From assembly GCA_030649135.1 (NCBI GenBank), contig JAUSGI010000008.1, positions 81,935 through 145,934 on the forward strand: DNA of 64,000 nucleotides, in the 5' to 3' direction. The notes below the pieces were generated by a model. It ran no database searches. It worked only from the letters and a program-made list of their open reading frames with translations, and was not told where the DNA came from. This stretch comes from a bacterium (GTDB taxonomy: Bacteria > Patescibacteriota > Minisyncoccia > Phycocordibacterales > Zambryskibacteraceae). Below, piece by piece: positions 3,629 to 61,273 of the stretch. Within the stretch, counting starts at the first letter, position 1, and every line of letters begins with the position of its first letter. The position numbers and the translations under genes were made by a program.

Positions 3629-3930
3629 TTCTTCTTGCTACGACTTGTCCCGAGCTTCGTCGAGGGAACCTTTCTAGGAGTAGCTTGCGCCTGTCTTTGT
3701 TTGAAGCGTTCGACTCGACCTGCGATATCGAGCGTGCGCACCTCTCCGGTATAGAAAGGGTGGGTAGCGGAAGATATTTCTACCCGAAAAACAGGATACT
3801 CTTTCTTGTCTACTTTGGCTTTGGCGGTTTCCTTGGTCACAACCGTGGAAGGAATGATAAATTCTGTGCCATCAGAGTTATCGATAAAAAGTACCGGTCG
3901 ATAATTGGCGGGGTGAATTTCTTTTCTCAT
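3625..3930 (-). CDS. rpmE: 50S ribosomal protein L31 (type B, no Cys motif)
   Basis: Starts 'MRKEIHP' and contains 'HPFYTG', both typical of L31. Confidence 0.8.
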
Positions 3931-3953: not shown

Positions 3954-5390
3954 TTAGAGGTTCTGCAACGGGTTAATCATGGTCAGCTGGATGTTCGAGG
4001 CCCTGTTCATCACCTGATTTCCATAGCTTAGACCGACATTTGCTCTACCTCTGGTGTAGCAAGTTTTACCGGAGTAATATCGACAAGCGGCACTACGCTC
4101 ATCGGTAAAGTCTTGGGAGCCGGCACCAAGATTTCCAAGTAGAATAGCCGAAGCCATAATGGCATCGGCCGGGTTCCAGGGGTCAGGATTCGTCTTGCCA
4201 ACCGCCGAGGCAATCTGACTTTCGATAAGGTTCCAGGTCGAAGGAATAAACTGGGCCGGCCCCATAGCGCCACCGTATCCCGGGACACCCGCAATAGGAC
4301 ACGAAACTCTAGTCCCCAAAGCGTCTCGTCCCAGATTTTTTAAAATAGTTTGCAAGAGCGGCAGGTCACGTGTCGGGTGAATACCGTTTAAAAACATTCT
4401 GCCTGTGTTGACCCCCTTGGTCTCACCGGTGGCAAGGTTCGTGATTACACAAGAACCGACATTTGCCCCGAGGTTTGACTCTTGTTGGAGGATTGCCAAA
4501 ATAAATGCCGGTCGCACTCCCGTTTTGACGCTTGCCGTTTCGGCATATTGGAGGGCCGTACCGAAGGGAATCGCTCCGGCATCTCTTAGTGGAAAGAGTA
4601 CGGCTTTAATCTGTGCTGCCTTAGCTTGTCTGTCTGCCAAGACTTGTTCGTAAGTTTTTTCTTTGGTCTGGTTAATAGCCAGGAGGGTCTTTTTCTCGGT
4701 CTGGTCTATTTCCACTTCTTTCTTGGATGCTTCCATGGCGGCGCGGGCAGCCGCCTCGGCTTCCCTTTTTTTATTCAGAATTGCTTTCTCCGTTTCGGTC
4801 AGGGTTCTGGTGGTTCTTAATTCGGTAAATAGGTCAGCCAGCGCCTGCTCGGTGGAAGCATAGGTATCTATGTCTATAAAAAATTCAGAAAGATTCTTGT
4901 CGCTTAACATGGCCTCGACTAATGAATAAGAATTGATATCGTTTGTCTTACGCAAAATATCAGCAATGGCGTTTTTACCCTTCGTGATGCGGGTATCAAG
5001 TACTACAATTTCTTTTTGCTTGACCGCGATATCTTTTGTCAGGTTAGCTATAGCAATATTTTTCCCCTTGATATTAGCTTGGGCGGCCTTTATTTTGGCA
5101 GTAAGAGCTGCAATGTCTCTAGTAAATGAGGCGCTGTCCTGTTTAGTTTTATTGAGCGTTACCGTCCATTCAGCAATCTCTTTATTACAGGCTTCAAGCT
5201 CTTGTTCAAGTTGGGCCCGACTCTTATTGGCGATTTGGTCGGTACAGGCATCTTGAGCGAGAGCGGAGTGATAATTGGGAACAATCAAAAAGCCGATAAC
5301 GAGTATCGAGACGGAAATTATTTGGAGTGGATTAAACTGGAGGTGTTTCTTTTTTGACTTCACTTTCATTGGTTTCAATAGTTTCCTCAC
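3954..5390 (-). CDS. Membrane-anchored coiled-coil protein with a C-terminal lysozyme-like / lytic transglycosylase domain
   Basis: An N-terminal TM segment is followed by a long Ala/Lys-rich coiled coil. The C-terminal domain carries 'AILQQESNLG' and 'GPAQFIPSTW', resembling the SLT catalytic region. The start may be the internal ATG near 5369. Confidence 0.55.
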   Translation of the reverse strand: MRKLLKPMKVKSKKKHLQFNPLQIISVSILVIGFLIVPNYHSALAQDACTDQIANKSRAQLEQELEACNKEIAEWTVTLNKTKQDSASFTRDIAALTAKIKAAQANIKGKNIAIANLTKDIAVKQKEIVVLDTRITKGKNAIADILRKTNDINSYSLVEAMLSDKNLSEFFIDIDTYASTEQALADLFTELRTTRTLTETEKAILNKKREAEAAARAAMEASKKEVEIDQTEKKTLLAINQTKEKTYEQVLADRQAKAAQIKAVLFPLRDAGAIPFGTALQYAETASVKTGVRPAFILAILQQESNLGANVGSCVITNLATGETKGVNTGRMFLNGIHPTRDLPLLQTILKNLGRDALGTRVSCPIAGVPGYGGAMGPAQFIPSTWNLIESQIASAVGKTNPDPWNPADAIMASAILLGNLGAGSQDFTDERSAACRYYSGKTCYTRGRANVGLSYGNQVMNRASNIQLTMINPLQNL

Positions 5391-51462: not shown

Positions 51463-52967
51463 ACCCACTCGCCAACATTATAAGGAGCATGGTCAACCCT
51501 TTGCCGGAAGACGTTGTCACCGTCAAGAAGGCCTTTACCTTCGCTCTCCGCGCTCACCAAGGGCACGAGAGACTATCCGGGGAACCTTATTTAAAACATC
51601 TGTCCGAAACGGCACTGATACTGGCAGAGCTGGGCGCGGGAGGGCCAACGATTGCAGCTGGATTACTTCACGATACGATAGAAGATGTTGGGGTTAAAAG
51701 AGAGGAAATTGTATCTGAATTTGGAGAAGAAGTCGCTTTCTTGGTTGACGGTGTTACCAAGCTCGGACATCTTAAATATAAAGGTGTTAACCGACACAAC
51801 GAGAGCTTGCGTAAATTATTCGTAGCCATGTCGGAAGATATCAGAGTGCTTCTCATCAAGCTCGCGGACCGCCTACATAATATGAGAACGCTCTCTCATG
51901 TGCCGAAAGAAAAACAAAAAAGGATAGCGGCGGAGACACTCGAAATCTACGCCCCCATCGCCTACCGACTGGGTATCAGAAAGATTAATCGCGAGCTTGA
52001 AGACTTATCCTTCCCTTACGTATATCCCAAGGAATACGAAGAGATGCGAAAAATGCTCAAAGAACGACACTCGGATAGAGTAGAGAGTTTAGAAAAATTT
52101 TCACACTCTGTTCAGAAGGCGCTGGCCAAAGAAGGTTTAACCAAAGCCAAGACAGAGTATCGGGTAAAGGGACTCTATAGTCTATACAAAAAATATCTTA
52201 GATATGATAAAGACCTGGAAAAGATCTATGACGTGAGCGCCATGCGTATCCTAGTGGACTCTATAGCAGATTGTTATCGAGTGCTGGGAGTGATACATGG
52301 ACGCTGGAGACCTTTACCGCGTCGTATCAAAGATTACATCGCTTTCCCCAAACCGAATGGCTATCAGGCCCTACATACAACTATCTTCATTGGAGACGGC
52401 AATATTGTGGAAGTCCAGATTAAAACTCACGAGATGTATCGGTATTCCGAATACGGTATCGCTTCCCACCTTTACTATAAAGAAAACGGTCGCAATAAAA
52501 ATGTCTTGGCCTGGGTCTATGCCCTTTTGCCAAAATCTAAAAAAGCAAACGGCACAGGTACTGTTAAAAGTAAGGATGTGCCCAAATGGATATCGGAGTT
52601 GGCCACATATGAAGAGCCCTCCCAAAATCAACGGCTCTTCCGAGAAAGGCTCACAAGCGACTTTTTCAGCCAAAGAATATTTGTTTTCTCCCCGAAGGGC
52701 GACGTGGTGGACTTGCCTATTGACTCAACCCCCATCGACTTTGCCTATTCGATACATTCCGACATCGGAGACCGCATGACGGGCAGCAAAGTGAATGGCA
52801 AGTTGGTCTCACTTGACACCAAGCTTCACAATGGAGATATAGTTTTCATCATGACTAGCGAATCGGCTAAACCTAATCGCAAATGGCTTGAGATGACCAA
52901 AACCTCAATGGCTCGCCGCCATATCCGACATCAACTTGGGAAACTTAGGAAACCTGACCGCGCTTAG
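51423..52967 (+). CDS. rel: RelA/SpoT-family (p)ppGpp synthetase/hydrolase (HD + synthetase + TGS, no ACT domain)
   Basis: HD 'HDTIEDV', synthetase 'ILVDSIADCYRVLGVIHGRWRP...DYIAFPKPNGYQALHTT' and TGS 'IFVFSPKGDVVDLP'. The start may be the second ATG at 51489. Confidence 0.85.
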   Translation: MSQSQPTQNQSDLDPLANIIRSMVNPLPEDVVTVKKAFTFALRAHQGHERLSGEPYLKHLSETALILAELGAGGPTIAAGLLHDTIEDVGVKREEIVSEFGEEVAFLVDGVTKLGHLKYKGVNRHNESLRKLFVAMSEDIRVLLIKLADRLHNMRTLSHVPKEKQKRIAAETLEIYAPIAYRLGIRKINRELEDLSFPYVYPKEYEEMRKMLKERHSDRVESLEKFSHSVQKALAKEGLTKAKTEYRVKGLYSLYKKYLRYDKDLEKIYDVSAMRILVDSIADCYRVLGVIHGRWRPLPRRIKDYIAFPKPNGYQALHTTIFIGDGNIVEVQIKTHEMYRYSEYGIASHLYYKENGRNKNVLAWVYALLPKSKKANGTGTVKSKDVPKWISELATYEEPSQNQRLFRERLTSDFFSQRIFVFSPKGDVVDLPIDSTPIDFAYSIHSDIGDRMTGSKVNGKLVSLDTKLHNGDIVFIMTSESAKPNRKWLEMTKTSMARRHIRHQLGKLRKPDRA

Positions 52968-53926
52968 ATACTGAAATTGGCGACAGAATAGAGAGACTCG
53001 TCGTCTTCGGATTTTACTGGCTCGTCCTCTGCGAGAATTTTGTCCTCCTCTGTCAGAGCTGGAACGTCTGCTATAGACATGTTTACTTCATGTGAGTTTT
53101 TAAATTCTTTATCCACAATAATTCTTTCAAGTAGAGCTCGTAGGTCATCTTTATTGAAAAAGTCTATCGTCACTCGCCCGCCTTCTTCCTTCTTTTCTAT
53201 TCTCACTCGAGTACCCAATTTCTCTTTAAACAAGCCCTCGATATCTATAAGTTCTTGGTCGATCAACTTGCGGGCACGCTCGACCGCAATGTGACGTGCG
53301 ATACCTTCCGCCTCCCTGACGTTGAGTTTTTTGAAAATAATTTCTTTGAAAAGCGTTTCTTGCTCCTGTGGCCTGTCGGTAAGCATCATGAGTGGCCGGG
53401 TATGGCCCTCGCTAATCTTATTTTCCGATAGAGCGTTAATAATATATTCCGGCAAAGAAAGAATGCGCAGAGAGTTTGAGACAAACTCACGACTCTTCCC
53501 TACTTTCTTGCCGATCTCGTGATGCTTGAACTTAAATTCTTTCGACAGGCGGTCGAAAGCGCGGGCACGGTCAACGGGACTAAGGTCCTCGCGCTGAATG
53601 TTTTCGATGATAGCGAGCTCAAGTTTCATTAGGTCAGTTTCCTCACCATCGCGAATGAGTACTGGTACTTGCGCGAGGCCAGCTAGGCGAGCGGCGCGGA
53701 GGCGCCGCTCGCCGGCCACCAATTCATATTCCACACCAATCCCCCCCTCCTCCTTTTCCACTTCTTTACGCGTCACCACAAGAGCCTGAAGCACGCCATA
53801 TTGGCGGATGGAATCCGCCAAACTCTTGAGCTGAACTTCATCGAAGTCACGGCGGGGCTGGTATGGGTTCGGCTTAATTTTATCCACCTCTATCCAGAAA
53901 ATAGAGTCGTTATAGAATCGGGACAT
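52964..53926 (-). CDS. parB: ParB/Spo0J-family partition protein
   Basis: ParB box 'GVLQALVV...ELVAGERRLRAARLAG', an HTH and an acidic C-terminus. Confidence 0.8.
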   Translation of the reverse strand: MSRFYNDSIFWIEVDKIKPNPYQPRRDFDEVQLKSLADSIRQYGVLQALVVTRKEVEKEEGGIGVEYELVAGERRLRAARLAGLAQVPVLIRDGEETDLMKLELAIIENIQREDLSPVDRARAFDRLSKEFKFKHHEIGKKVGKSREFVSNSLRILSLPEYIINALSENKISEGHTRPLMMLTDRPQEQETLFKEIIFKKLNVREAEGIARHIAVERARKLIDQELIDIEGLFKEKLGTRVRIEKKEEGGRVTIDFFNKDDLRALLERIIVDKEFKNSHEVNMSIADVPALTEEDKILAEDEPVKSEDDESLYSVANFSI

Positions 53927-53969
53927 GCAAATATTATATCAAATGTTTTTATGCTATTCTATGGTAGAC

Positions 53970-54052
53970 GCTGGAGTGATGGAATGGCAGACATGCAGCA
54001 CTCAAAATGCTGTGGGCGCAAGCCCGTGTGGGTTCAAGTCCCACCTCCAGCA
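53970..54052 (+). tRNA. tRNA-Leu (anticodon CAA)
   Basis: Hand fold. Acceptor GCTGGAG/CTCCAGC, 3-bp D-stem, anticodon stem CAGCA/TGCTG with loop CTCAAAA, a 15-nt variable arm (GGGC-GCAA-GCCC), T-arm GTGGG-TTCAAGT-CCCAC. No CCA is encoded. Confidence 0.8.
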
Positions 54053-54053
54053 C

Positions 54054-54632
54054 ATGCTAAATCTTACCGATAAAACTTTGGTGGCATATGTTATTGGTAT
54101 CGCTCTTGGCGATGGAAATCTTTCTAATCCGAATGGACGTGCAGTTAGATTAAGAATAACCTGTGACTCTAAATATCCCTTTTTGATTTCTAAGATTGAA
54201 CAGTCATTAAAGAAATTGGCCCCTAAAAATAAAGTCTCTCGAATCAATAGAGGAGATAATGCCATAGATGTCAGCTGCTATTCAAATCAATGGGAGCAAT
54301 TACTCGGTTGGAAGGCCTACGGTGGCTCAAAAATAAGACAATCGGTTCGCATACCTAGTTGGATATTTAGAAATAAAAAACTTTGTCAGGCTTGTTTGTG
54401 CGGACTATGGGAGACCGATGGTTCGGTTTACAAAGACAGAAAATATATAACAGCAAATTTTGTGACTCAGATTCCAAGCCTCGCACAAGGTGTGGCGAAG
54501 ATGATTCTTAAAACCCGCTACAAGGCTTCTATACAAAAATTGGTCTTATCTGATAACAGAGAAAAATTTACTTTCAGAATTCATAGAAATGCTTCTCAGT
54601 TTATTAAAGAAATGTCTATAGAGAAAAGGTGA
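54054..54632 (+). mobile_element. Free-standing double-motif LAGLIDADG homing endonuclease gene
   Basis: Motif 1 'VIGIALGDGNLS' and motif 2 'LCGLWETDGSV'. The ATG sits 2 nt after the tRNA-Leu 3' end. The frame is open back through the tRNA to 53925. Confidence 0.7.
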
Positions 54633-54770
54633 TACAGCAAGCGTCCATCATAGAATGTGGATTCTCTCTCCCGGCACCCATAATTGACTTCCTATCAGTG
54701 TGATATAAAATTCGTGTTAAACAGTACAAACGCGACTTATCAGATAGAACCAAGGGAGGAGGTGAAGGAC

Positions 54771-55160
54771 ATGACACCAGGCGATAAACTGCAGTTATGC
54801 CAGCAGGTTGGGGAGTGCCTCCGAAACTCTCCGGTAAAAGATTCTCTCACGAAGCGCTGGGAGAATCAGCTCTTCGCGAGGCATCTAGAGTATCCGGAGC
54901 GAAGTCCCCAAATCTGCACGACGGTGCAGTTGGAAATCGGACCTACAACCGGCTGGTTTACACTTGAGCAGACGGGTGGTGGTTTCTTGGCGCACATCTG
55001 GGCGCCAGGCGCCCGAGAGTCCAAGGAGGTCGAGAAGGAGGCACGCGATCTCGGTGACCATCTGTTGTCGGTCCTTCCTGCCTCATGCGTTCGAGTCCGT
55101 TTTGCCAAACCGCACGAGTTCCTCTCTCGTAAAGGGTGGTCAATCCACAACGGCAACTAG
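54771..55160 (+). CDS. Hypothetical protein in GC-rich islet
   Basis: 129 aa with a very strong SD 'GGGAGGAGGTG', about 58% GC and a perfect terminator downstream. The ORF is open back to 54684. Confidence 0.5.
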   Translation: MTPGDKLQLCQQVGECLRNSPVKDSLTKRWENQLFARHLEYPERSPQICTTVQLEIGPTTGWFTLEQTGGGFLAHIWAPGARESKEVEKEARDLGDHLLSVLPASCVRVRFAKPHEFLSRKGWSIHNGN

Positions 55161-55181
55161 GTATAGACGGGCAATCATCCC

Positions 55182-55224
55182 GGGCCTCTCCGACACCGCT
55201 GTCGGAGAGGCCCTCTTCTTTTTT
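55182..55224 (+). terminator. Strong rho-independent terminator
   Basis: A 14-bp stem (gggcctctccgaca / tgtcggagaggccc) is followed by a T-rich run ending in TTTTTT. Confidence 0.7.
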
Positions 55225-55339
55225 AAATTTATTTTCATAAATGGTTAGTTTTTACTGCATGTGCTTGACTTTTAGCATATATCTATTGTATAATCTAAGC
55301 AGAAAATAAAACGATCTTAGCCCAGGGCCCAAGGAGGGC

Positions 55340-55795
55340 ATGATGCACAAGTCACTAGTTTTCGCATGGATATGTGTGATCTGTTGGTCATTCCTTCCGA
55401 ATATTTTGGAACGGAAGCTGGATGGTTTCCACCCTGCGTCGATCCTCGTCCTCGTCTACTCCGTGATGCTCTCGCTCGCCTTTGTACGACTGGGACACGT
55501 AAAGTACATGGGAGAGCCGGTGCACTTCCCGACGGGCATCTTCCTTACCATCGCTGTCGGTACTGCCTTCCTCTGGTTTGTGGGTGACTACTCGTATACC
55601 AGCGCATTCTTGAGCCAGGGTAGCCTGGTCGCGATCATGACTATTTTGGCTTTATCACCCATCGGTGCAACCCTCGTGAAGATGGTTTGGGCAGGGGAGC
55701 TCCCGAACCGTTATCACATCGTGGCGTATGTGGCAGTCCTCATAGCAATCTACTTCACGGCGAAAGGTAATACCATCGCCAACTCAGTCCCCTGA
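55340..55795 (+). CDS. Hypothetical 4-TM membrane protein in GC-rich islet
   Basis: 151 aa with SD 'AAGGAGGG' and GC-rich codon usage unlike the core genes. Confidence 0.5.
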   Translation: MMHKSLVFAWICVICWSFLPNILERKLDGFHPASILVLVYSVMLSLAFVRLGHVKYMGEPVHFPTGIFLTIAVGTAFLWFVGDYSYTSAFLSQGSLVAIMTILALSPIGATLVKMVWAGELPNRYHIVAYVAVLIAIYFTAKGNTIANSVP

Positions 55796-55907
55796 AATAG
55801 ACATTGCGAGTTCAAGCCTCGCATGGGAAAGCTCAACACAGCTTACCGTGCGGGGCTTTCTTATTTTCATAACATACTCTGTATATTTGCAATGTATAAT
55901 AAGATGA

Positions 55908-58619
55908 ATGGAAACCAAGTGGCATACACTAGAGCTTTCGGAAATATTTGAGATATTGAAGTCTAGTGAGCACGGACTCTCAAGCGTAGAGGCGGATCGG
56001 CGGCTTGACGAGAACGGACCGAATAAATTACCGGATTCGAAAGCAGATAGCATCGCGTTTATTTTCCTGCGCCAATTTCGAAGTCCCTTGATTTATATCC
56101 TCCTCGCGGCCGCCCTGACGGTTTTTGTCATGGGGGAAACAGTCAACAGTATCGTTATTATGGCGGTGCTTATTGTTAATGCAGTTATCGGCTCCATCCA
56201 GGAGGGACGGGCCCGCAGTACCATACTTGCCCTGAAGCAATTCGTGGAGACAAAAGCGGTTATTCTGCGAGACGGCAAAGAAGTGATTGCCCCCGATACG
56301 CAAGTAGTAGTCGGGGATATCATCTTACTCCAAGAGGGCGACAGAATAGCCGCCGATGCAAGGTTGATAGTCGCCCGGAATCTAAAAATCGACGAATCCT
56401 CTTTGACCGGAGAGTCCGAGGCGGTGCACAAGACAAGTGACACTCTGGTCAAGCCAGACTTGGCGATGATAGGGGAAAGCAATATGGTCTTCAAAGGCAC
56501 CCACATTGTCCTGGGCAATGGCAAAGCAGTTGTGGTAAAAACCGGAGTGGAAACAGTCATCGGTAAAATTGCCAAAGAGGTTCTAACTATCGAGACAGAA
56601 ATTCCACTTCAGACCAATATCCGTTATCTCTCCAGAATAATTATCGCAATTGCTATTGGCGTCAGCACCGCCATCTTTATCCTTGGCAGCTTTTCCGGTC
56701 AATCTACACGAGAAATGTTTTCTCTTGTCGTTTCCATGCTCGTCTCCGTCATACCGGAAGACTTGCCTATTGCCATCACTATAATTTTAGCCGCCGGCGT
56801 CTGGAGAATGAGTAAGAGAAATGCTCTGGTCAAGCGCCTGCAGGCGGTCGAGGCGCTTGGAGAAGCCCGAGTCATCGCGGTAGATAAGACCGGCACTATT
56901 ACCAAAAACGAGATGATGGTCCAGACTATCTATGTGGATGGTAAAACTTTCGAGGTCGGAGGCATCGGGTATGAACCTAAGGGAGATATCAAACTGGAAA
57001 ATCGGATTATAGACCCGCCCAATCATCCGGAACTTTTGCTAGTCGGCAAAATGGCCGCTTTTTGCGCCAATGCTCGGGTCATGTTTCTGGAAAAGACCAA
57101 GGAGTGGAAAATCTCCGGCGATCCGACGGAAGCGGCCATGTTGGTAGTGGCAGAAAAACTTGGATTTAATAAAGATGATTTGGAACGTGAGTCCCCGCTC
57201 ATATCGGAAATTCCTTTCGACTATAAATTGAAATATCACGTGACCGTTCACAAAGACAATAACCAAAACTTTACAACAATCGTGGGGGCGCCGGAAACTA
57301 TCTTGGGAATCTCGAGCAAAGTCTGGCGTAACGGGCAGGCAGAGCAACTCTTACCGGAGGAGAAAGATGAATTGGTATCCATTTTTTCCGGTATTTCGAA
57401 GAGGGGGCTTAGAGTTATCGCGCTTGCCTTAAGCCCACAGGTGTCAGAAAATGTTAATCAAACAGATATTAAACATCTCACTTTTGTCGGGTTCTTGGGC
57501 CTAAAGGATGCCTTACGTCTGGAAGTTAAGGAAGCCACCAAACGCGCGATCTCGGCCGGCATCAGGGTGGTGATGATTACCGGTGACCACCAAAATACTG
57601 CGGAAACCATAGCGAAAGAAGCCGGTATCTACAGGACCGGTGATATCAGTTTGACGGGCGCAGAAATTGATAATCTGTCGGATACCATGCTTAAAGAGCG
57701 CCTGACCAAAACTTCTGTCTTTGCCAGAGTAACGCCGGAGCACAAGCTCCGCATTATCAATGCCTACAAATCGAGAGGAGAGATTGTCGCGATGACGGGT
57801 GACGGAGTAAACGACGCGCCGTCTCTAGTGGCGGCAGACCTCGGAGTGGCGATGGGCAGAGTCGGCACCGAGGTGGCCAAAGAAGCTTCCGATATCATAC
57901 TCTTGGACGATAACTTCGGCAGTATCATTTCCGCCATTGAGGAGGGCAGGAGTATTTATAAAACTATTAAAAAAGTTGTTCTATATCTATTATCCACCAG
58001 TCTCGGAGAGATTTTTGTTATTGCCGGAGCCATCATCGTTGGGCTCCCCCTACCGCTTTTGCCAACACAAATTATCTGGCTGAACTTCGTCACTGACGGA
58101 TTTTTCACCTTGGCGCTCGCCATGGAACCGAGGGAGGAGGGACTATTGCGCGGCAATTTTGAGAAGCCGAAAAAATATTTGGTTGATGCCCTCATGGGAC
58201 GGCGGATGATTGTCATGGCGCTCCCGATGACGATAGCGACGCTCGTGCTGTTTCAAAATTACTTCAATACTGACTTGGCAAAAGCCTGGACAATTTCCCT
58301 CACCCTCCTGGCAGTATTCCAATGGTTCAATGCTTGGAATTGCCGCTCCGAGAGCGAGTCTATCTTCCAGACTAACCCCTTTGAAAATAAGTTCATGGTA
58401 TTTGCCACCTTGGCGGCCTTTTCCTTCCAGTTGCTGGCTGTTTATAATCCCCTGTTCCAAAAATTCTTACATACTGCGCCGCTTGCGCTTTCCGACTGGT
58501 TGGTTATCATTGCCCTTGCTACTTCTATTGTCTTGGTGGAAGAAGTTAGAAAATTTTTATGGCGCAACAAAAAGTCCTCGTTATCCTTGGCCCTACCGCT
58601 TCAGGCAAGTCAGATTTAG
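55908..58619 (+). CDS. P-type cation-transporting ATPase (type IIA, Ca2+-ATPase-like)
   Basis: Phosphorylation site 'DKTGTIT', 'MITGDHQNTA', 'GDGVNDAPSL', and 10 TM helices. Confidence 0.85.
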   Translation: METKWHTLELSEIFEILKSSEHGLSSVEADRRLDENGPNKLPDSKADSIAFIFLRQFRSPLIYILLAAALTVFVMGETVNSIVIMAVLIVNAVIGSIQEGRARSTILALKQFVETKAVILRDGKEVIAPDTQVVVGDIILLQEGDRIAADARLIVARNLKIDESSLTGESEAVHKTSDTLVKPDLAMIGESNMVFKGTHIVLGNGKAVVVKTGVETVIGKIAKEVLTIETEIPLQTNIRYLSRIIIAIAIGVSTAIFILGSFSGQSTREMFSLVVSMLVSVIPEDLPIAITIILAAGVWRMSKRNALVKRLQAVEALGEARVIAVDKTGTITKNEMMVQTIYVDGKTFEVGGIGYEPKGDIKLENRIIDPPNHPELLLVGKMAAFCANARVMFLEKTKEWKISGDPTEAAMLVVAEKLGFNKDDLERESPLISEIPFDYKLKYHVTVHKDNNQNFTTIVGAPETILGISSKVWRNGQAEQLLPEEKDELVSIFSGISKRGLRVIALALSPQVSENVNQTDIKHLTFVGFLGLKDALRLEVKEATKRAISAGIRVVMITGDHQNTAETIAKEAGIYRTGDISLTGAEIDNLSDTMLKERLTKTSVFARVTPEHKLRIINAYKSRGEIVAMTGDGVNDAPSLVAADLGVAMGRVGTEVAKEASDIILLDDNFGSIISAIEEGRSIYKTIKKVVLYLLSTSLGEIFVIAGAIIVGLPLPLLPTQIIWLNFVTDGFFTLALAMEPREEGLLRGNFEKPKKYLVDALMGRRMIVMALPMTIATLVLFQNYFNTDLAKAWTISLTLLAVFQWFNAWNCRSESESIFQTNPFENKFMVFATLAAFSFQLLAVYNPLFQKFLHTAPLALSDWLVIIALATSIVLVEEVRKFLWRNKKSSLSLALPLQASQI

Positions 58620-59449
58620 CCGTTCGATTAGCCAAGAGATTCGGGGGAGAAATAATCTCTGCCGATTCGCGACAAGTATATAAGGGTCTTGATATCGGCA
58701 CCGGCAAGATTACCAAGCAGGAAATGCGGGGAGTCCCCCATCATCTGCTGGATGTGGTAAATCCTCGAAAACAATTCTCGGCATCGAAATACAAAAAACT
58801 AGCTGATGAAAAAGTACGATATATCGCACAAAAGCATAAGTTACCCATTGTGGTAGGAGGGACGGGGTTTTATATTGATGCCTTGACAGGCAGAGCTAAT
58901 TTTCCGGAGGTGGGACCCAATCTTCTATTACGCAAGAAGCTGGAGAAAAAAACTGCGTCTGAACTTTTCCGAATGTTAAATAAAAAGGACCCCCGGAGAG
59001 CTGGAGCAATTGATTTGAGAAATAAAGTACGTGTGATACGGGCATTGGAAATTGTCGAGGCTCTGGGCAAGGTGCCCCAAGCTAGCCCCAAGCCCCTAGA
59101 ACCTAGCCCCTTTATCTACATCGGCCTCAAACCGGATAATCTTGACGGGAGAATTCATAAGAGACTAATAGAGAGGCTTGATGGGATGATTCGCGAGGGC
59201 AAAAAACTCCACACTCAAGGACTCACCTACAAGCGCATGCACCAGCTCGGGCTGGAATATAGATATGTTGGTATGTACCTACAAGGCAAGCTCTCACGGG
59301 AAGAAATGGTTGATAAGTTATATATTGAAATAAAACGTTACGCCAAGCGCCAAATGACTTGGTTCAAACGCAATAAAAAGATTAGGTGGTTTAAACCGGA
59401 GGAATACAAAAAGATAGAAAGATTAGTAAATGTTCAGCTAAACACCTAA
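58559..59449 (+). CDS. miaA: tRNA dimethylallyltransferase
   Basis: P-loop 'GPTASGKS', 'ISADSRQVYKGLDIGT' and 'VGGTGFY'. Its start overlaps the ATPase 3' end by 61 nt in another frame. Confidence 0.85.
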   Translation: MAQQKVLVILGPTASGKSDLAVRLAKRFGGEIISADSRQVYKGLDIGTGKITKQEMRGVPHHLLDVVNPRKQFSASKYKKLADEKVRYIAQKHKLPIVVGGTGFYIDALTGRANFPEVGPNLLLRKKLEKKTASELFRMLNKKDPRRAGAIDLRNKVRVIRALEIVEALGKVPQASPKPLEPSPFIYIGLKPDNLDGRIHKRLIERLDGMIREGKKLHTQGLTYKRMHQLGLEYRYVGMYLQGKLSREEMVDKLYIEIKRYAKRQMTWFKRNKKIRWFKPEEYKKIERLVNVQLNT

Positions 59450-59842: not shown

Positions 59843-59845
59843 ATG

Positions 59846-59916
59846 CGGGCGATCGAGGAATCGAACCTCGGATAGCAGATTTGGAGGCCGCAGTTATACC
59901 ACTTAACTAATCGCCC
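59846..59916 (-). tRNA. tRNA-Trp (anticodon CCA)
   Basis: Hand fold. Acceptor GGGCGAT/ATCGCCC, D-stem GTTA/TAAC, anticodon loop CTCCAAA, T-arm CGAGG-TTCGATT-CCTCG. There is one mismatch at the 31:39 pair. No CCA is encoded. Confidence 0.7.
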
Positions 59917-61186: not shown

Positions 61187-61273
61187 TGGTGCGCCGGGCA
61201 GGATTCGAACCTGCGTAGACCAAAGGTCGAGGGATTTACAGTCCCTTGCGATTGACCGCTCCGCCACCGACGC
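61187..61273 (-). tRNA. tRNA-Tyr (anticodon GTA)
   Basis: Hand fold. Acceptor GCGTCGG/CCGGCGC with one G-U pair, anticodon loop CTGTAAA, long variable arm, T-arm CAGGTTCGAATCCTG, CCA encoded. Confidence 0.75.

Follow-up and report, generated by a model that had tools for sequence, protein, structure and literature searches.

A LAGLIDADG homing endonuclease family abutting tRNA-Leu(CAA) genes in Patescibacteria: a candidate cassette for replacement of resident tRNA alleles

Introduction

LAGLIDADG endonucleases make site-specific double-strand cuts at targets of 14–40 bp. Monomeric double-motif members include I-DmoI and I-Tsp061I of archaeal rRNA introns. LAGLIDADG scaffolds can also be domesticated, as exemplified by WhiA, and domesticated proteins of the WhiA type have lost the catalytic Asp. 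To our knowledge, free-standing LAGLIDADG homing endonucleases (HEs) are regarded as rare in bacteria, and accounts of them in Patescibacteria have so far been confined to rRNA insertions and introns.

Within the CPR/Patescibacteria, LAGLIDADG endonucleases lie in insertion sequences of the 16S and 23S rRNA genes or in group I introns (PMC11270868; PMC13011429), and a tRNA-linked free-standing family is mentioned in neither of these two papers. The family described here shares with the endonucleases of rRNA insertions the host phylum, the superfamily and the occupation of highly conserved RNA genes (PMC11270868).

According to the available part of the report on phage T4 SegB (PMC2330249), this free-standing GIY-YIG HE lies in the T4 tRNA gene cluster and recognises a target that includes the conserved TψC stem-loop of a tRNA gene; through homing, the HE and neighbouring tRNA genes are inherited together, and the recipient loses its own tRNA-region markers. 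The locus presented here is similar in that a free-standing HE lies among tRNA genes, displaced tRNA stubs have their boundaries in the T-arm region, and the tRNA has moved along with the HE. SegB differs in being a GIY-YIG enzyme of a phage, acting in co-infection, with demonstrated cleavage, whereas here a LAGLIDADG protein with putative cleavage activity is encoded on a bacterial chromosome. Abutment of the start codon on the tRNA and a displaced tRNA stub, both present here, are not mentioned for SegB in that part of the report (PMC2330249).

The mobile ORFs (mORFs) of mitochondria form hybrid genes, namely Glomus atp6, atp9, cox2 and nad3 and Allomyces atp6, in which the core of the gene is followed by an imported 3' end, a LAGLIDADG ORF and the displaced native 3' end (PMC3630166). 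As in these, the native stub at our locus matches a close relative, the functional part is foreign, and the ORF directly adjoins the host gene or is transcribed along with it; unlike these, the host gene is a tRNA gene in a bacterial genome, and the whole tRNA and its leader, not only a 3' end, appear to have been exchanged (PMC3630166). Our search of the literature found this kind of arrangement described for phage T4 and fungal mitochondria and not for bacterial chromosomes.

Layout of the Locus

The stretch of DNA that was analysed, hereafter the window (WIN), comprises 64,000 nucleotides of a Patescibacteria contig, and all features given below lie on its forward strand. The spacer between parB and the tRNA gene (53927–53969), which belongs to the "HE haplotype", ends in tattctatggtagac and probably contains the tRNA promoter and the leader. 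It is followed by a tRNA-Leu(CAA) gene, here called the type-A allele (53970–54052), which has the acceptor strands GCTGGAG/CTCCAGC and no intron, and does not encode CCA. ARAGORN called the gene at 53970–54053 and Rfam at 53970–54052 (55.5 bits), and acceptor pairing sets the discriminator base at 54052. A first-pass annotation, made by a model from the sequence alone, had described a complete intron-less tRNA-Leu ending at 54052, which the Rfam match and the acceptor pairing bear out.

In the window, the HE start codon lies 1 nt past the discriminator base. The HE gene runs from the ATG at 54054 to 54632 (192 codons) as an uninterrupted frame containing its own start and stop codons, and the tRNA is likewise uninterrupted. 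A search of 52500–57000 against Rfam (E ≤ 1) returned the tRNA alone besides weak chance matches, and no intron was found. In most loci of the family, miaA starts 0–12 nt past the HE stop, a gap too short to accommodate intron RNA. The HE is thus free-standing, being neither intron- nor intein-encoded. A possible peculiarity of the HE, the missing Shine–Dalgarno (SD) site, was dropped, as SD-like motifs are rare upstream of the genes of the window generally (7 of 38 in a crude count in which each gene was taken to begin at its first ATG, compared with 11.5% at random positions).

Downstream of the HE lie the displaced tRNA stub, two small cassettes, a P-type cation ATPase gene identified by Pfam (55908–58619) and miaA, which encodes a tRNA isopentenyltransferase (58559–59449) and is the conserved gene to the right of the tRNA-Leu/HE module.

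The Endonuclease Protein

The frame contains the motifs VIGIALGDG and LCGLWETDG. With the preceding residue included, motif 1 (YVIGIALGDG) spans 54087–54116, with the codon of the catalytic Asp20 at 54111–54113, and motif 2 (CLCGLWETDG) spans 54393–54422, with that of Asp122 at 54417–54419. Pfam LAGLIDADG_3 (PF14528) matched the protein at E = 7.5e-8, with 33 bits against a cut-off of 22.5. The reading frame, the Pfam match and both motifs therefore agree with the earlier description of a 192-aa double-motif LAGLIDADG protein. In an alignment of 28 diverse family members (A1), D20 and D122 were invariant, as were Y12, A17, G19 and G21 in motif 1 and G117, L118, T121 and G123 in motif 2; the motifs are intact and not degenerate. 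About 45 positions of the HE are invariant across hosts whose ParB is only 36–45% identical.

The AlphaFold2 model (pLDDT 95.3) consists of two alpha-beta-beta-alpha-beta-beta-alpha halves, and its best fold matches in the PDB (Foldseek) were I-Tsp061I, I-DmoI and PI-SceI, with TM of about 0.65–0.7. A sequence search of the PDB found no significant match to any chain and returned only marginal ones, including spurious matches to BamA, which made a search by fold necessary. With I-DmoI and I-Tsp061I the HE shares a length of ~190 aa, a two-fold pseudo-symmetric fold and an acidic residue ending each motif (Foldseek E ~1e-8, TM 0.63–0.70); the identity, however, is only ~17%, and those enzymes are intron-encoded with rRNA targets, whereas the HE is free-standing at a tRNA. 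By its motifs and its model, the HE is a monomeric double-motif member of the LAGLIDADG superfamily with a predicted I-DmoI-like fold. An exact-sequence look-up with the window's own HE matched no record.

The protein also resembles WhiA in its two-domain LAGLIDADG scaffold, with a weak Pfam LAGLIDADG_WhiA match (E = 0.006) under the cut-off. Unlike WhiA, it has 192 aa, ends with the second LAGLIDADG domain, lacks a C-terminal HTH and keeps both catalytic acidic residues. Some sources name the protein WhiA, and gene callers recurrently extend the HE ORF through the tRNA; the WhiA label was rejected as an annotation artefact, given the missing HTH, the retained D20 and D122 and the sub-threshold match.

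Distribution of the Family

The family was searched in species-representative genomes, which gave 166 loci, and 80 of these were fetched for neighbourhood analysis. It is tight (48–85% identity), with E-values of 1e-62 to 1e-84 within the family and of ~1e-26 for the nearest full-length proteins outside it. Among the 80 fetched loci, tRNA-Leu(CAA) was directly 5' on the same strand in 68 and adjacent in another arrangement in four, while four loci met a contig end and four had no such neighbour. The tRNA therefore adjoins the HE in 72 of the 76 informative loci, and every adjacent tRNA is the CAA isoacceptor. As the adjacency recurs to this extent in other genomes, it lies far beyond chance. 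In 57 of 67 loci, the first in-frame HE start was found 1–16 nt past the discriminator; 24 loci had it at 1–2 nt. The order TopA-RelA-ParB / tRNA-HE-miaA is conserved among HE-bearing loci; in most of these genomes miaA follows directly 3' of the HE, without the islet seen in the window, and often 0–12 nt past the stop. Judging from these neighbourhoods, the results show that the family lives almost only at the tRNA-Leu(CAA) site in Patescibacteria.

The homologous site occurs in HE-bearing, empty and remnant form, which demonstrates a presence/absence polymorphism. At the more distant empty sites L138, L164 and L179, a terminator lies directly 3' of the tRNA. In L149, HE codons 1–40 alone remain, fused to miaA, and the HE genes of L032, L059 and L071 are pseudogenes with stops or frameshifts. 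No known Rfam family was found for the structured element 3' of the tRNA in L179, L077 and L083.

Family members were also found in low-GC islands of non-Patescibacteria genomes with 61–65% GC. At one such locus, L066, a P4-type tyrosine integrase is encoded 0.7 kb away from the HE, and an inverted fragment of the tRNA-Leu 3' end lies next to it. The IMG/VR viral contigs contained no close family members, only relatives at 26–29% identity, and no match to the family was found in collections of cultured phages and plasmids. A metagenome scan with the tRNA 3' 23-mer was set aside, as the matches listed were mostly tRNA-Leu genes of other phyla, including CAG and TAG isoacceptors; five Patescibacteria-like loci among the matches listed were usable.

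The Displaced tRNA Stub and the Leader

Immediately past the HE stop, at 54637–54680, a second tRNA-Leu(CAA), called type B and recognised by its match to the tRNA of relatives, is present as a displaced 3' stub. The variable-arm and T-arm parts of the stub are decayed, and its last 19–20 nt, GATTCTCTCTCCCGGCACC (54660–54678), are intact. This intact part is identical to the 3' terminus of the full-length tRNA of HE-less L214 and L215, and also to the beginning of L209. The local score of the stub is 21, against 13 for the 99th percentile of the null, and its 18-mer occurs once in the window, where 0.02 occurrences are expected. DNA homology between the window and L001 stops within the stub, at 54677 (BLASTN). 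The first-pass annotation had proposed, as a check, a search of the islet boundary for direct repeats matching the tRNA 3' end; such a repeat does exist and is strong, at the distal boundary of the unit of tRNA and HE, and not at 55806–55822, where an att-like remnant had been suspected.

The type-A tRNA of the window differs from the native type-B tRNA of its nearest HE-less relatives, L214 and L215. As the 3' end of the stub is that of the native tRNA of HE-less relatives, the working tRNA of the window must have come with the HE. The sequence comparison thus identifies the working tRNA-Leu(CAA) as an imported allele that arrived together with the HE. The 43-nt spacer agrees with this picture in its distribution: it can be aligned end to end among HE-bearing WIN, L001, L005 and L006, and its end, ...tggtagac, recurs in L007 and L059, whose ParB is only 55–69% identical (tatggtagac in five of six). 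The ...tggtagac leader is thereby common to HE-bearing loci of hosts with 55–85% identical ParB, and six HE-less relatives with 85–90% identical ParB have a different spacer.

Comparable stubs lie immediately 3' of the HE stop in L001, L015, L030, L032, L039, L048 and L070. Foreign tRNA fragments were found immediately 5' of the HE in L049, L077 and L083, and T-arm-like fragments 5' of the HE in L066, L074 and L075, which are GC-rich contigs from outside Patescibacteria. The stub boundaries are spread over tRNA positions ~45 to 60 rather than at one point, and the stub of L049 begins in the anticodon loop. L216 has the type-A tRNA and a native stub with the HE absent, which indicates that the tRNA replacement can happen, or persist, without the HE. 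An inverted repeat around the tRNA and HE (53956–53972 / 54640–54656) was judged to be chance, as it is not kept in L001 and an estimated ~0.16 pairs are expected.

Comparison of Close Relatives

Nine close lineages including the window, with ParB 85–90% identical, were compared; for L209, a short contig, the placement relied on its ATPase and on DNA identity. The HE is present in the window and one other of the nine and missing from six (L211/L212, L213, L214, L215, L216 and L217, HE-less at the same locus), and L209 is HE-less or uncertain. The HE-bearing loci in the presence/absence comparison were WIN and L001–L004. In HE-less L211, the ATG of miaA lies 3 nt past the tRNA discriminator.

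The interval from parB and the tRNA to miaA has nine different contents in the nine lineages; the relatives have an ATPase, small ORFs or serine recombinases there, with large serine recombinases in L215 and L209. The first-pass annotation had suspected an integration hotspot after the tRNA-Leu and had proposed the interval from parB to the ATPase for comparison. The gene order there is not shared among the relatives, and the nine contents, two of them with large serine recombinases, uphold the suspicion: on these alignments, the interval 3' of tRNA-Leu(CAA) is a real hotspot of content variation.

Downstream Cassettes

The ORF2 cassette (54684–55160) contains a promoter-like TTGACT-16-TAAAAT (54684–54711), the SD GGGAGGAGGTG and ORF2 (54771–55160, 129 aa), and is followed by an intrinsic terminator with a 14-bp stem (55182–55213) and a T-run (55182–55224 in all). 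The ORF3 cassette (55229–55872) contains a TTGACT-18-TATAAT promoter (55265–55294), an SD, ORF3 (55340–55795, 151 aa) and a hairpin, tgcgag-ttcaagc-ctcgca (55805–55823); it is flanked by a 12-bp direct repeat, TTATTTTCATAA, at 55229–55240 and 55861–55872. ORF2, the terminator, the membrane ORF and the T-arm-like hairpin were all found where they had first been placed. The islet had been called GC-rich, and ORF2 (56.4%) and ORF3 (52.6%) do exceed the window (46.6%), the HE having 36.8%; the enrichment is nevertheless modest.

ORF2 had no match in Pfam, NCBIfam or PHROG and is an orphan with only five homologues in 5.8 billion proteins; in L209 the ATPase is linked to it, and L001, L214, L216 and L217 lack it. 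ORF3 is weakly EamA-like in Pfam (25.1 bits, under the cut-off of 28.2). It had been described as a protein with four transmembrane segments; a hydrophobic, membrane-type ORF is indeed present, with five hydrophobic segments counted by eye. The cassette is an indel relative to L209: BLASTN aligned WIN 54660–55224 with L209 13–566 and WIN 55857–59415 with L209 557–4110, and the 632-bp ORF3 cassette is not present in L209. The hairpin, which lies inside this cassette, had been taken as a possible att-like remnant. Its likeness to tRNA-Leu is only borderline, its score of 15 against a library of tRNA ends being equal to the maximum of 120 null windows, and the att repeat at 55806–55822 was rejected as more than a borderline possibility, as the 12-nt T-arm match (83%) is no better than a 16-nt match (88%) internal to the HE.

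Only in this clade is the ATPase part of the DNA that separates the HE from miaA; it is missing there in L005, L006, L059 and most HE-bearing loci, and its identity to relatives (65–88%) is discordant with the flanking genes. No integrase or recombinase ORF was found within 53970–58619 of the window, and no integrase was noticed beside the HE in the Patescibacteria loci with examined neighbours; recombinases occurred only in the HE-less or uncertain relatives L215 and L209 and, outside Patescibacteria, in L066. The view of the HE as cargo of a GC-rich islet did not hold, as the unit from tRNA to stub consists of the tRNA and the HE alone and most HE genomes lack the islet. ORF2, ORF3 and the ATPase are separate insertions, later or earlier, outside the HE unit.

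Transfer and Vertical Inheritance

The Mantel rho between HE distances and those of ParB, RelA and TopA was −0.07 to 0.16, compared with 0.54–0.79 for pairs of host genes, rate differences between HE subclades contributing to the contrast. As a proof of horizontal transfer, the whole-set Mantel test was downgraded for these rate differences and because most HE groups are consistent with their hosts: at intermediate depth the HE clusters largely follow host groups, with L030 as one clear outlier. Individual pairs differed in their identities, with 85% for the HE and 80.7% for host proteins between the window and L001, and 68% and 83.0%, respectively, between the window and L006. No consistent "immune" substitution was found in HE-bearing tRNA alleles, the T-loop variants being mixed.

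The dN/dS of the HE was 0.04–0.15 in ten close pairs (0.07 for the window and L001), equal to that of ParB, RelA and TopA, and its dS was below that of flanking genes in most pairs. In 77 of 79 loci, the GC content of the HE lies ~8 points under that of its host, which it tracks (r = 0.80). The low GC is thus the norm of the family and not a sign of recent arrival, and the adaptation to host GC points to long residence, with mostly vertical inheritance between rare transfers.

Discussion

The best reading of these data is that the leader, tRNA-Leu(CAA) and the free-standing HE gene form one mobile unit. We give a probability of roughly 60% to the view that a cassette with a free-standing HE takes the place of resident tRNA-Leu(CAA) alleles, its closest analogues being T4 SegB and the mitochondrial mORFs. 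From the geometry of the locus, the tRNA promoter would drive synthesis of a joint tRNA-HE precursor, and tRNA 3' processing by RNase Z or an equivalent would release an mRNA with a leader of one to a few nt, which may be translated without a Shine–Dalgarno site, probably at a low level. The stub boundaries in the variable-arm/T-arm region mark this part of the tRNA gene as the candidate target region, and the HE would cut HE-less tRNA-Leu(CAA) alleles probably in or near it. Repair would then copy the donor tRNA, or its 3' part, together with the HE, so that a functional tRNA is kept and the native 3' end is pushed downstream as a stub. Repeated breaks and repairs, along with other integrating elements, could produce the variability of the stretch up to miaA.

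The strict maintenance of the protein may be explained differently, by an old, vertically inherited host gene of a tRNA-Leu(CAA)-miaA operon whose patchiness reflects repeated loss. Such a domesticated LAGLIDADG protein could act as a DNA/RNA-binding factor or nuclease for tRNA-Leu, miaA expression or the parB/origin region. WhiA is a precedent for the scaffold; the housekeeping-level dN/dS, the ~45 invariant positions in hosts of 36–45% ParB identity, the conserved synteny, the host-adapted GC and HE clusters that mostly track host groups are all consistent with it, and with miaA so close to the HE stop, translational coupling could make an open frame useful. We consider this explanation unlikely, as the HE is missing from six of the eight other close lineages, of which L214 and L215 keep an intact native tRNA and therefore never had the cassette. 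Moreover, a remnant or pseudogenes were found in L149, L032, L059 and L071, both catalytic Asp are strictly kept, unlike in WhiA-type proteins, the stubs and foreign tRNA fragments record insertion events, family members lie in low-GC islands of 61–65% GC genomes outside Patescibacteria, and HE distances are uncorrelated with host distances, partly through the subclade rate differences. The synteny, the adapted GC and the host-consistent clusters would also suit a single ancient insertion at tRNA-Leu(CAA), since inherited or lost as an immobile relic, with the stubs and the islet arising from unrelated recombination at the hotspot, for which L216 provides a tRNA replacement without the HE. This appears highly improbable: an inactive gene should decay, yet dN/dS is 0.04–0.15 and the catalytic residues are invariant, the ranks of HE and host identity are incongruent for WIN, L001 and L006, the leader-tRNA-HE haplotype is shared by hosts with 55% identical ParB and not by those at 85–90%, and the HE is present in non-Patescibacteria genomes.

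tRNA-targeting elements with tyrosine integrases have identity blocks at att sublocations within the 3' part of the tRNA, and the stubs, running from the T-loop or variable arm to the tRNA 3' end, resemble such blocks. The earlier integrative model can accordingly be revised to a miniature tRNA-3'-end element moved in trans, with the HE as passive cargo and the tRNA end and stub as attL and attR. P4-like islands (leuX etc.) provide the parallel, as they share the 3' part of tRNA-Leu(CAA), a tRNA restored by the incoming DNA and a far-end direct repeat; here, in contrast, there is no integrase, the unit measures only ~0.7 kb and its boundaries vary. The stub of L049 starting in the anticodon loop, the integrase 0.7 kb from the HE in L066 and the large serine recombinases in L215 and L209 could fit such an element. 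We regard it as quite improbable, since no integrase was found in the window stretch or noticed beside the HE in the Patescibacteria loci examined, where miaA usually comes next, and such an element would consist of a single 0.6-kb ORF. Boundaries between positions ~45 and 60 give no single crossover point, we know of no such tRNA-end duplications created by serine recombinases, and the upkeep of an intact, catalytically complete endonuclease would go unexplained.

Replacement of tRNA alleles by a mobile HE cassette is therefore preferred. Several observations count against this reading too: a T-arm-internal site would exist in HE-bearing alleles as well, purely selfish elements do not usually show purifying selection at housekeeping level when their hosts are largely clonal, and a vehicle was absent from the viral, phage and plasmid collections searched. 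The tRNA replacement without the HE in L216, the host-adapted GC and the HE clusters that mostly follow host groups belong here as well. A more far-reaching version, which we put forward tentatively and with some doubt, is an allele-replacement drive in which the HE destroys the resident tRNA-Leu(CAA) and supplies a linked resistant allele, the tRNA processing site making the 5' end of its mRNA. The drive reading would be the bacterial counterpart of mitochondrial tRNA punctuation. If it is true, the host would depend on the cassette for tRNA-Leu(CAA) and, by read-through or translational coupling, for MiaA, a dependence that would account for the housekeeping-level purifying selection on a selfish gene, and tRNA-Leu(CAA) would be among the most horizontally exchanged genes in Patescibacteria.

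The findings present a large, coherent HE family that, in many lineages, keeps to one and the same tRNA gene. The imported tRNA allele and the displaced native stub indicate that a core tRNA gene has repeatedly been replaced between lineages, which helps to explain a local hotspot of gene content in otherwise streamlined genomes. The locus is also a candidate case of a bacterial mRNA whose 5' end is possibly made by tRNA processing, and the 192-aa, highly conserved monomeric LAGLIDADG scaffold, whose target is likely to be a conserved tRNA gene, may be of interest to enzyme engineers.

The tRNA-Leu(CAA) gene and its adjoining endonuclease

The intron-less tRNA-Leu(CAA) gene of the first-pass annotation was located by both ARAGORN and Rfam at 53970–54052/3. 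Acceptor pairing placed the discriminator A at 54052, which is followed by a single C and then by an ATG at 54054. The double-motif ORF of 192 aa reported to open there runs over 54054–54632 on the forward strand and contains VIGIALGDG and LCGLWETDG; it encodes the free-standing LAGLIDADG homing endonuclease (HE). An in-frame ORF of 235 aa also stays open across the whole tRNA gene, from an ATG at 53925 to 54632. Apparently because the frame remains open through the tRNA, public homologues are often annotated 20–40 aa too long; many have 210–235 aa and some are named 'WhiA', which looks like a recurrent annotation artefact. The 'WhiA' naming is not supported, as the protein has no HTH domain and retains the catalytic residues. 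A 17-nt inverted repeat around the tRNA and HE (53956–53972 / 54640–54656, 15/17 complementary) was also set aside; it is not conserved in the HE-bearing relative L001 and is probably due to chance.

The HE passed the Pfam LAGLIDADG_3 model with 33 bits (cut-off 22.5). A word-indexed search gave 718 proteins, the best 120 of which were 49–100% identical and nearly all from Patescibacteria (Zambryskibacteria, Parcubacteria, Magasanik-, Falkow- and Uhrbacteria, and others). In an exhaustive profile search, full-length family members scored E-values of 1e-62 to 1e-84 and the next full-length proteins ∼1e-26, a gap that points to a compact, well-separated family. Across 28 diverse members, the mean column identity was 65% and the catalytic residues D20 and D122 were invariant. 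The PDB sequence search yielded no matching chain. The AlphaFold2 model (pLDDT 95.3) was closest to I-Tsp061I, I-DmoI and the endonuclease domain of PI-SceI. The dN/dS of ten close pairs was 0.04–0.15, the same range as for ParB, RelA and TopA. The intact motifs, the Pfam match, the invariant Asp residues, the fold and the low dN/dS therefore defeat the objection, raised in the first-pass annotation, that the motifs might be degenerate. From sequence and model, the protein is predicted to be an active LAGLIDADG enzyme of the monomeric type.

Linkage of the endonuclease to tRNA-Leu(CAA)

Scanning one genome per species identified 166 HE loci, of which 80 were fetched. The tRNA-Leu(CAA) gene lay immediately upstream on the same strand in 68 of these, including one locus that contains an assembly gap and another that runs off its contig. 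Four further loci had the tRNA adjacent in another arrangement: the HE stop precedes the tRNA 5' end by 2–5 nt in L051 and L056, and the two genes are convergent in L018 and divergent in L052. Another four were uninformative owing to contig ends, and in the last four the tRNA was absent beside the HE. No other tRNA partner was found among the fetched HE loci. The linkage is therefore the rule, not a coincidence.

The first in-frame HE start was 1–16 nt past the discriminator in 57/67 loci and 1–2 nt past it in 24, where the junctions read CATG, CCATG, CAATG or CTTG; at some loci, the A of the encoded CCA doubles as the A of the HE ATG. At L065, L083 and L077, where the HE stands apart from the tRNA, it is closely preceded by a terminator plus a -10-like box and again has almost no leader. 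The usual gene order was TopA-RelA-ParB(-), followed by tRNA-Leu, HE and miaA, with the miaA start often 0–12 nt past the HE stop. In L211 (345–432) and L212 (348–435), both on the reverse strand and without the HE, miaA starts 3 nt past the tRNA discriminator. The locus itself, then, places an ORF against this tRNA, and the HE has moved into that arrangement. At the more distant HE-less sites L138, L164 and L179, an intrinsic terminator directly follows the tRNA.

MiaA modifies A37 in tRNAs for UNN codons; tRNA-Leu(CAA), Trp and Tyr would be among them, and the genes for all three are clustered here (window 59845–59916 and 61187–61273). Other structures were observed near the locus in relatives. 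L179 (2124–2250), L077 (4715–4861) and L083 (5765–5911) contain a structured element in the interval from tRNA-Leu to miaA or the HE, with fold z-scores of -6.1, -2.9 and -4.6, respectively, and no Rfam match. Its closing helix, in which an exact inverted copy of the last 20 nt of the tRNA pairs with a degenerate direct copy, imitates the acceptor and T-stem and encloses two hairpins; possible identities are an unknown ncRNA, a signal for processing and the scar of a repair. Directly 3' of the HE, ARAGORN reported four head-to-tail 92-nt 'tRNA-Ser(ACT)' copies and a tRNA-Thr(TGT) in L057 (6608–7037), and one 'tRNA-Ser(ACT)' copy in L037 (6910–7072). The L057 array consists of odd tandem tRNA-like units with an unusual anticodon.

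A displaced native tRNA end in the window

A repeat of the tRNA 3' end, which the first-pass annotation had proposed to look for, was found just past the HE. A decayed tRNA-Leu 3' half occupies 54637–54680, starting five nt after the HE stop, with a local-alignment score of 21 (null 99th percentile 13); its 18-mer occurs once in the window against 0.02 expected. The last 19–20 nt of this stub, GATTCTCTCTCCCGGCACC, match without a difference the 3'-terminal bases of the complete native tRNA in L214 and in L215, as well as the bases that open the L209 contig. The working tRNA of the window (type A) has the acceptor GCTGGAG/CTCCAGC and T-stem GTGGG/CCCAC, whereas the native allele (type B) has GCCGGGA/TCCCGGC and GAGAG/CTCTC. 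As the stub matches the native allele while the working tRNA differs, the incoming tRNA and HE have overwritten the native tRNA-Leu(CAA) of the window lineage and left only its 3' end.

Similar tRNA-Leu 3' fragments were located 0–45 nt past the HE stop in L001, L015, L030, L032, L039, L048 and L070 (scores 13–24). The 5' limits of the stubs fell at tRNA positions ∼45 to 60, which correspond to the variable arm and T-arm. L049, L077 and L083 have foreign tRNA fragments immediately 5' of the HE, the one in L049 starting in the anticodon loop. The 43-nt parB–tRNA spacer is of one sequence type in the window, L001, L005 and L006, and shares its end, ...tggtagac, with L007 and L059, in which ParB identity falls to 55–69%; the spacer differs in six HE-less relatives with ParB 85–90% identical. 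From these comparisons, the left spacer also belongs to the unit.

The parB–ATPase interval was compared in relatives, as had been suggested, and the gene order was not shared. Among the closest relatives, fetched via ParB at 85–90% identity, each lineage differed in its parB–miaA content. Without the HE, tRNA type D is followed directly by miaA (L211/L212), type E by a 126-aa ORF and miaA (L213), and types B (L214) and C (L217) by the P-type ATPase and miaA. L215, also HE-less, has tRNA type B, a large serine recombinase, a 104-aa ORF, a patatin and miaA. The HE-less L216 holds tRNA type A, a type-C stub, a 152-aa ORF, the ATPase and miaA. The HE is present in L001–L004 (tRNA type A, HE, type-B stub, three small ORFs, ATPase, miaA) and in the window (tRNA type A, HE, type-B stub, ORF2, ORF3, ATPase, miaA). 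The L209 contig starts within a type-B tRNA or stub, followed by ORF2, the ATPase, a truncated miaA and a serine recombinase. The HE is thus carried by two of nine close lineages; the L209 contig begins at this very site.

In L216 (reverse strand, within the ∼55 nt that directly follow tRNA-Leu 4869–4954), a 19-nt palindrome, CCTGCCTGCCGGCAGGCAG, sits precisely where T-stem and T-loop meet and splits the native type-C stub, perhaps as a trace of break repair. In L215 (3415–4980) and L209 (4122–5771), the locus contains large serine recombinases (Resolvase + Recombinase + Zn_ribbon_recom), one directly against tRNA-Leu(CAA) and the other truncating miaA. Decayed copies of the HE were also identified: L149 (reverse strand, in the ∼120 nt that follow tRNA-Leu 3715–3799) retains codons 1–40 only, through RVTCDNK, fused directly to the miaA start codon, and stops or a frameshift interrupt the HE in L032, L059 and L071.

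The downstream islet

The HE had been grouped with the downstream islet, but miaA directly follows the HE in most HE-bearing genomes; ORF2, ORF3 and the ATPase lie outside the HE unit. ORF2 (54771–55160, SD GGGAGGAGGTG) and the 14-bp-stem terminator (55182–55213) were both recovered. ORF3 was found at 55340–55795 with five hydrophobic segments instead of the four proposed, and its EamA match (Pfam) is under threshold. The islet is above the window mean in GC, although only at 53–56% against 46.6%. The T-arm-like hairpin is present at 55805–55823, but its likeness to the tRNA-Leu T-arm is at the edge of significance, and it does not bound the HE unit. Relatives have many tRNA-Leu stubs at this locus, and the hairpin may be an eroded one.

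The orphan ORF2 has just five homologues and is found together with the ATPase in L209. Relative to L209, ORF3 with its promoter and the hairpin forms a 632-bp indel between TTATTTTCATAA repeats. Each of the two cassettes comes with a promoter-like site and with a strong SD (54755–54765 for ORF2, 55330–55337 for ORF3); for ORF2, a clear intrinsic terminator is present in addition. By a crude count taking the first ATG as start, an SD-like motif, even a 4-mer, precedes only 7/38 long window ORFs (11.5% at random positions); strong SDs, being rare in the window, are consistent with a foreign origin of both cassettes. The ATPase is 65–88% identical to that of relatives, discordant with the flanking genes (79–85%), and may therefore itself be exchanged. 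At its 3' end, the ATPase ORF shares 61 nt (58559–58619) with the start of miaA as annotated.

Vertical and probable horizontal history

The HE has probably been inherited both vertically and horizontally, at different time scales. Its GC content tracks that of the host (r = 0.80), being ∼8 points lower in 77/79 loci, and most HE subgroups are limited to one host group, with L030 as the outlier; both observations speak for long residence. HE distances were uncorrelated with those of ParB, RelA and TopA (rho -0.07 to 0.16), which correlate mutually at 0.54–0.79. Between the window and L001, the HE is 85% identical and host proteins 80.7%, as against 68% and 83.0% for L006. In most close pairs, HE dS was below that of the flanking genes (0.70 vs 2.78 for L063/L081). 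The window is as near to L214 as to L006, and nearer than to L001; with its native tRNA intact, L214 can never have carried the cassette. Family members 51–54% identical occur in low-GC islands within non-Patescibacteria contigs of 61–65% GC (L066:3002–5554, L075:2800–7000, L074:999–1550), where T-arm-like tRNA fragments precede the HE. In L075, the HE lies inside a 50–55% GC island; in L066, it is neighboured by a P4-type tyrosine integrase as well as by a tRNA-Leu 3' fragment in inverted orientation. The uncoupled distances, identity ranks, dS, L214 and the foreign contigs speak for transfer. IMG/VR viral contigs gave only matches of 26–29% identity and no close HE relatives, and GenBank phages and PLSDB plasmids contained no family member; natural DNA uptake as the route is a guess.

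A proposed homing cassette and its alternatives

The likeliest mechanism, to which we assign a probability of roughly 0.6, is a free-standing homing cassette of leader, tRNA-Leu(CAA) and HE that replaces resident alleles. The HE would be co-transcribed from the tRNA promoter, and its mRNA 5' end would be made through tRNA 3' processing. The enzyme would then cut tRNA-Leu(CAA) alleles that lack the HE, somewhere within the gene's 3' half; repair would copy the cassette into the cut allele, restoring a working tRNA and pushing the native 3' end aside.

Some points weaken this reading. A site purely in the T-arm would also be present in HE-bearing alleles; in L216, the tRNA was replaced and a stub left with no HE; and selection on the HE matches in strength that on housekeeping genes. 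The main rival reading, which we consider unlikely, is a domesticated HE, perhaps with translational coupling to miaA as a reinforcement; the strong selection would suit it, and the evidence for transfer stands on the other side. That a mini-element is moved by an integrase acting in trans is more doubtful still, with the integrase beside the HE in L066 in its favour. An immobile relic is the least probable, given the low dN/dS and the signs of transfer.

The homing cassette has two close analogues elsewhere. SegB of phage T4 is described as a free-standing GIY-YIG enzyme in a tRNA cluster, with a 27-bp site including the TpsiC stem-loop, which drives the inheritance of itself and neighbouring tRNA genes (PMC2330249). 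Mitochondrial mobile ORFs (mORFs) comprise, in this exact order, a gene core, an imported 3' end, a LAGLIDADG ORF and a displaced native 3' end (PMC3630166); there, as in the window, the native stub matches sister species. Two recent papers on Patescibacteria tRNA introns and rRNA insertions treat LAGLIDADG genes and describe no tRNA-linked free-standing family (PMC11270868, PMC13011429), and full-text literature outside subscription journals contained nothing comparable in bacteria. The cassette would follow the SegB/mORF logic, with a LAGLIDADG enzyme acting on a tRNA gene of a bacterial chromosome.
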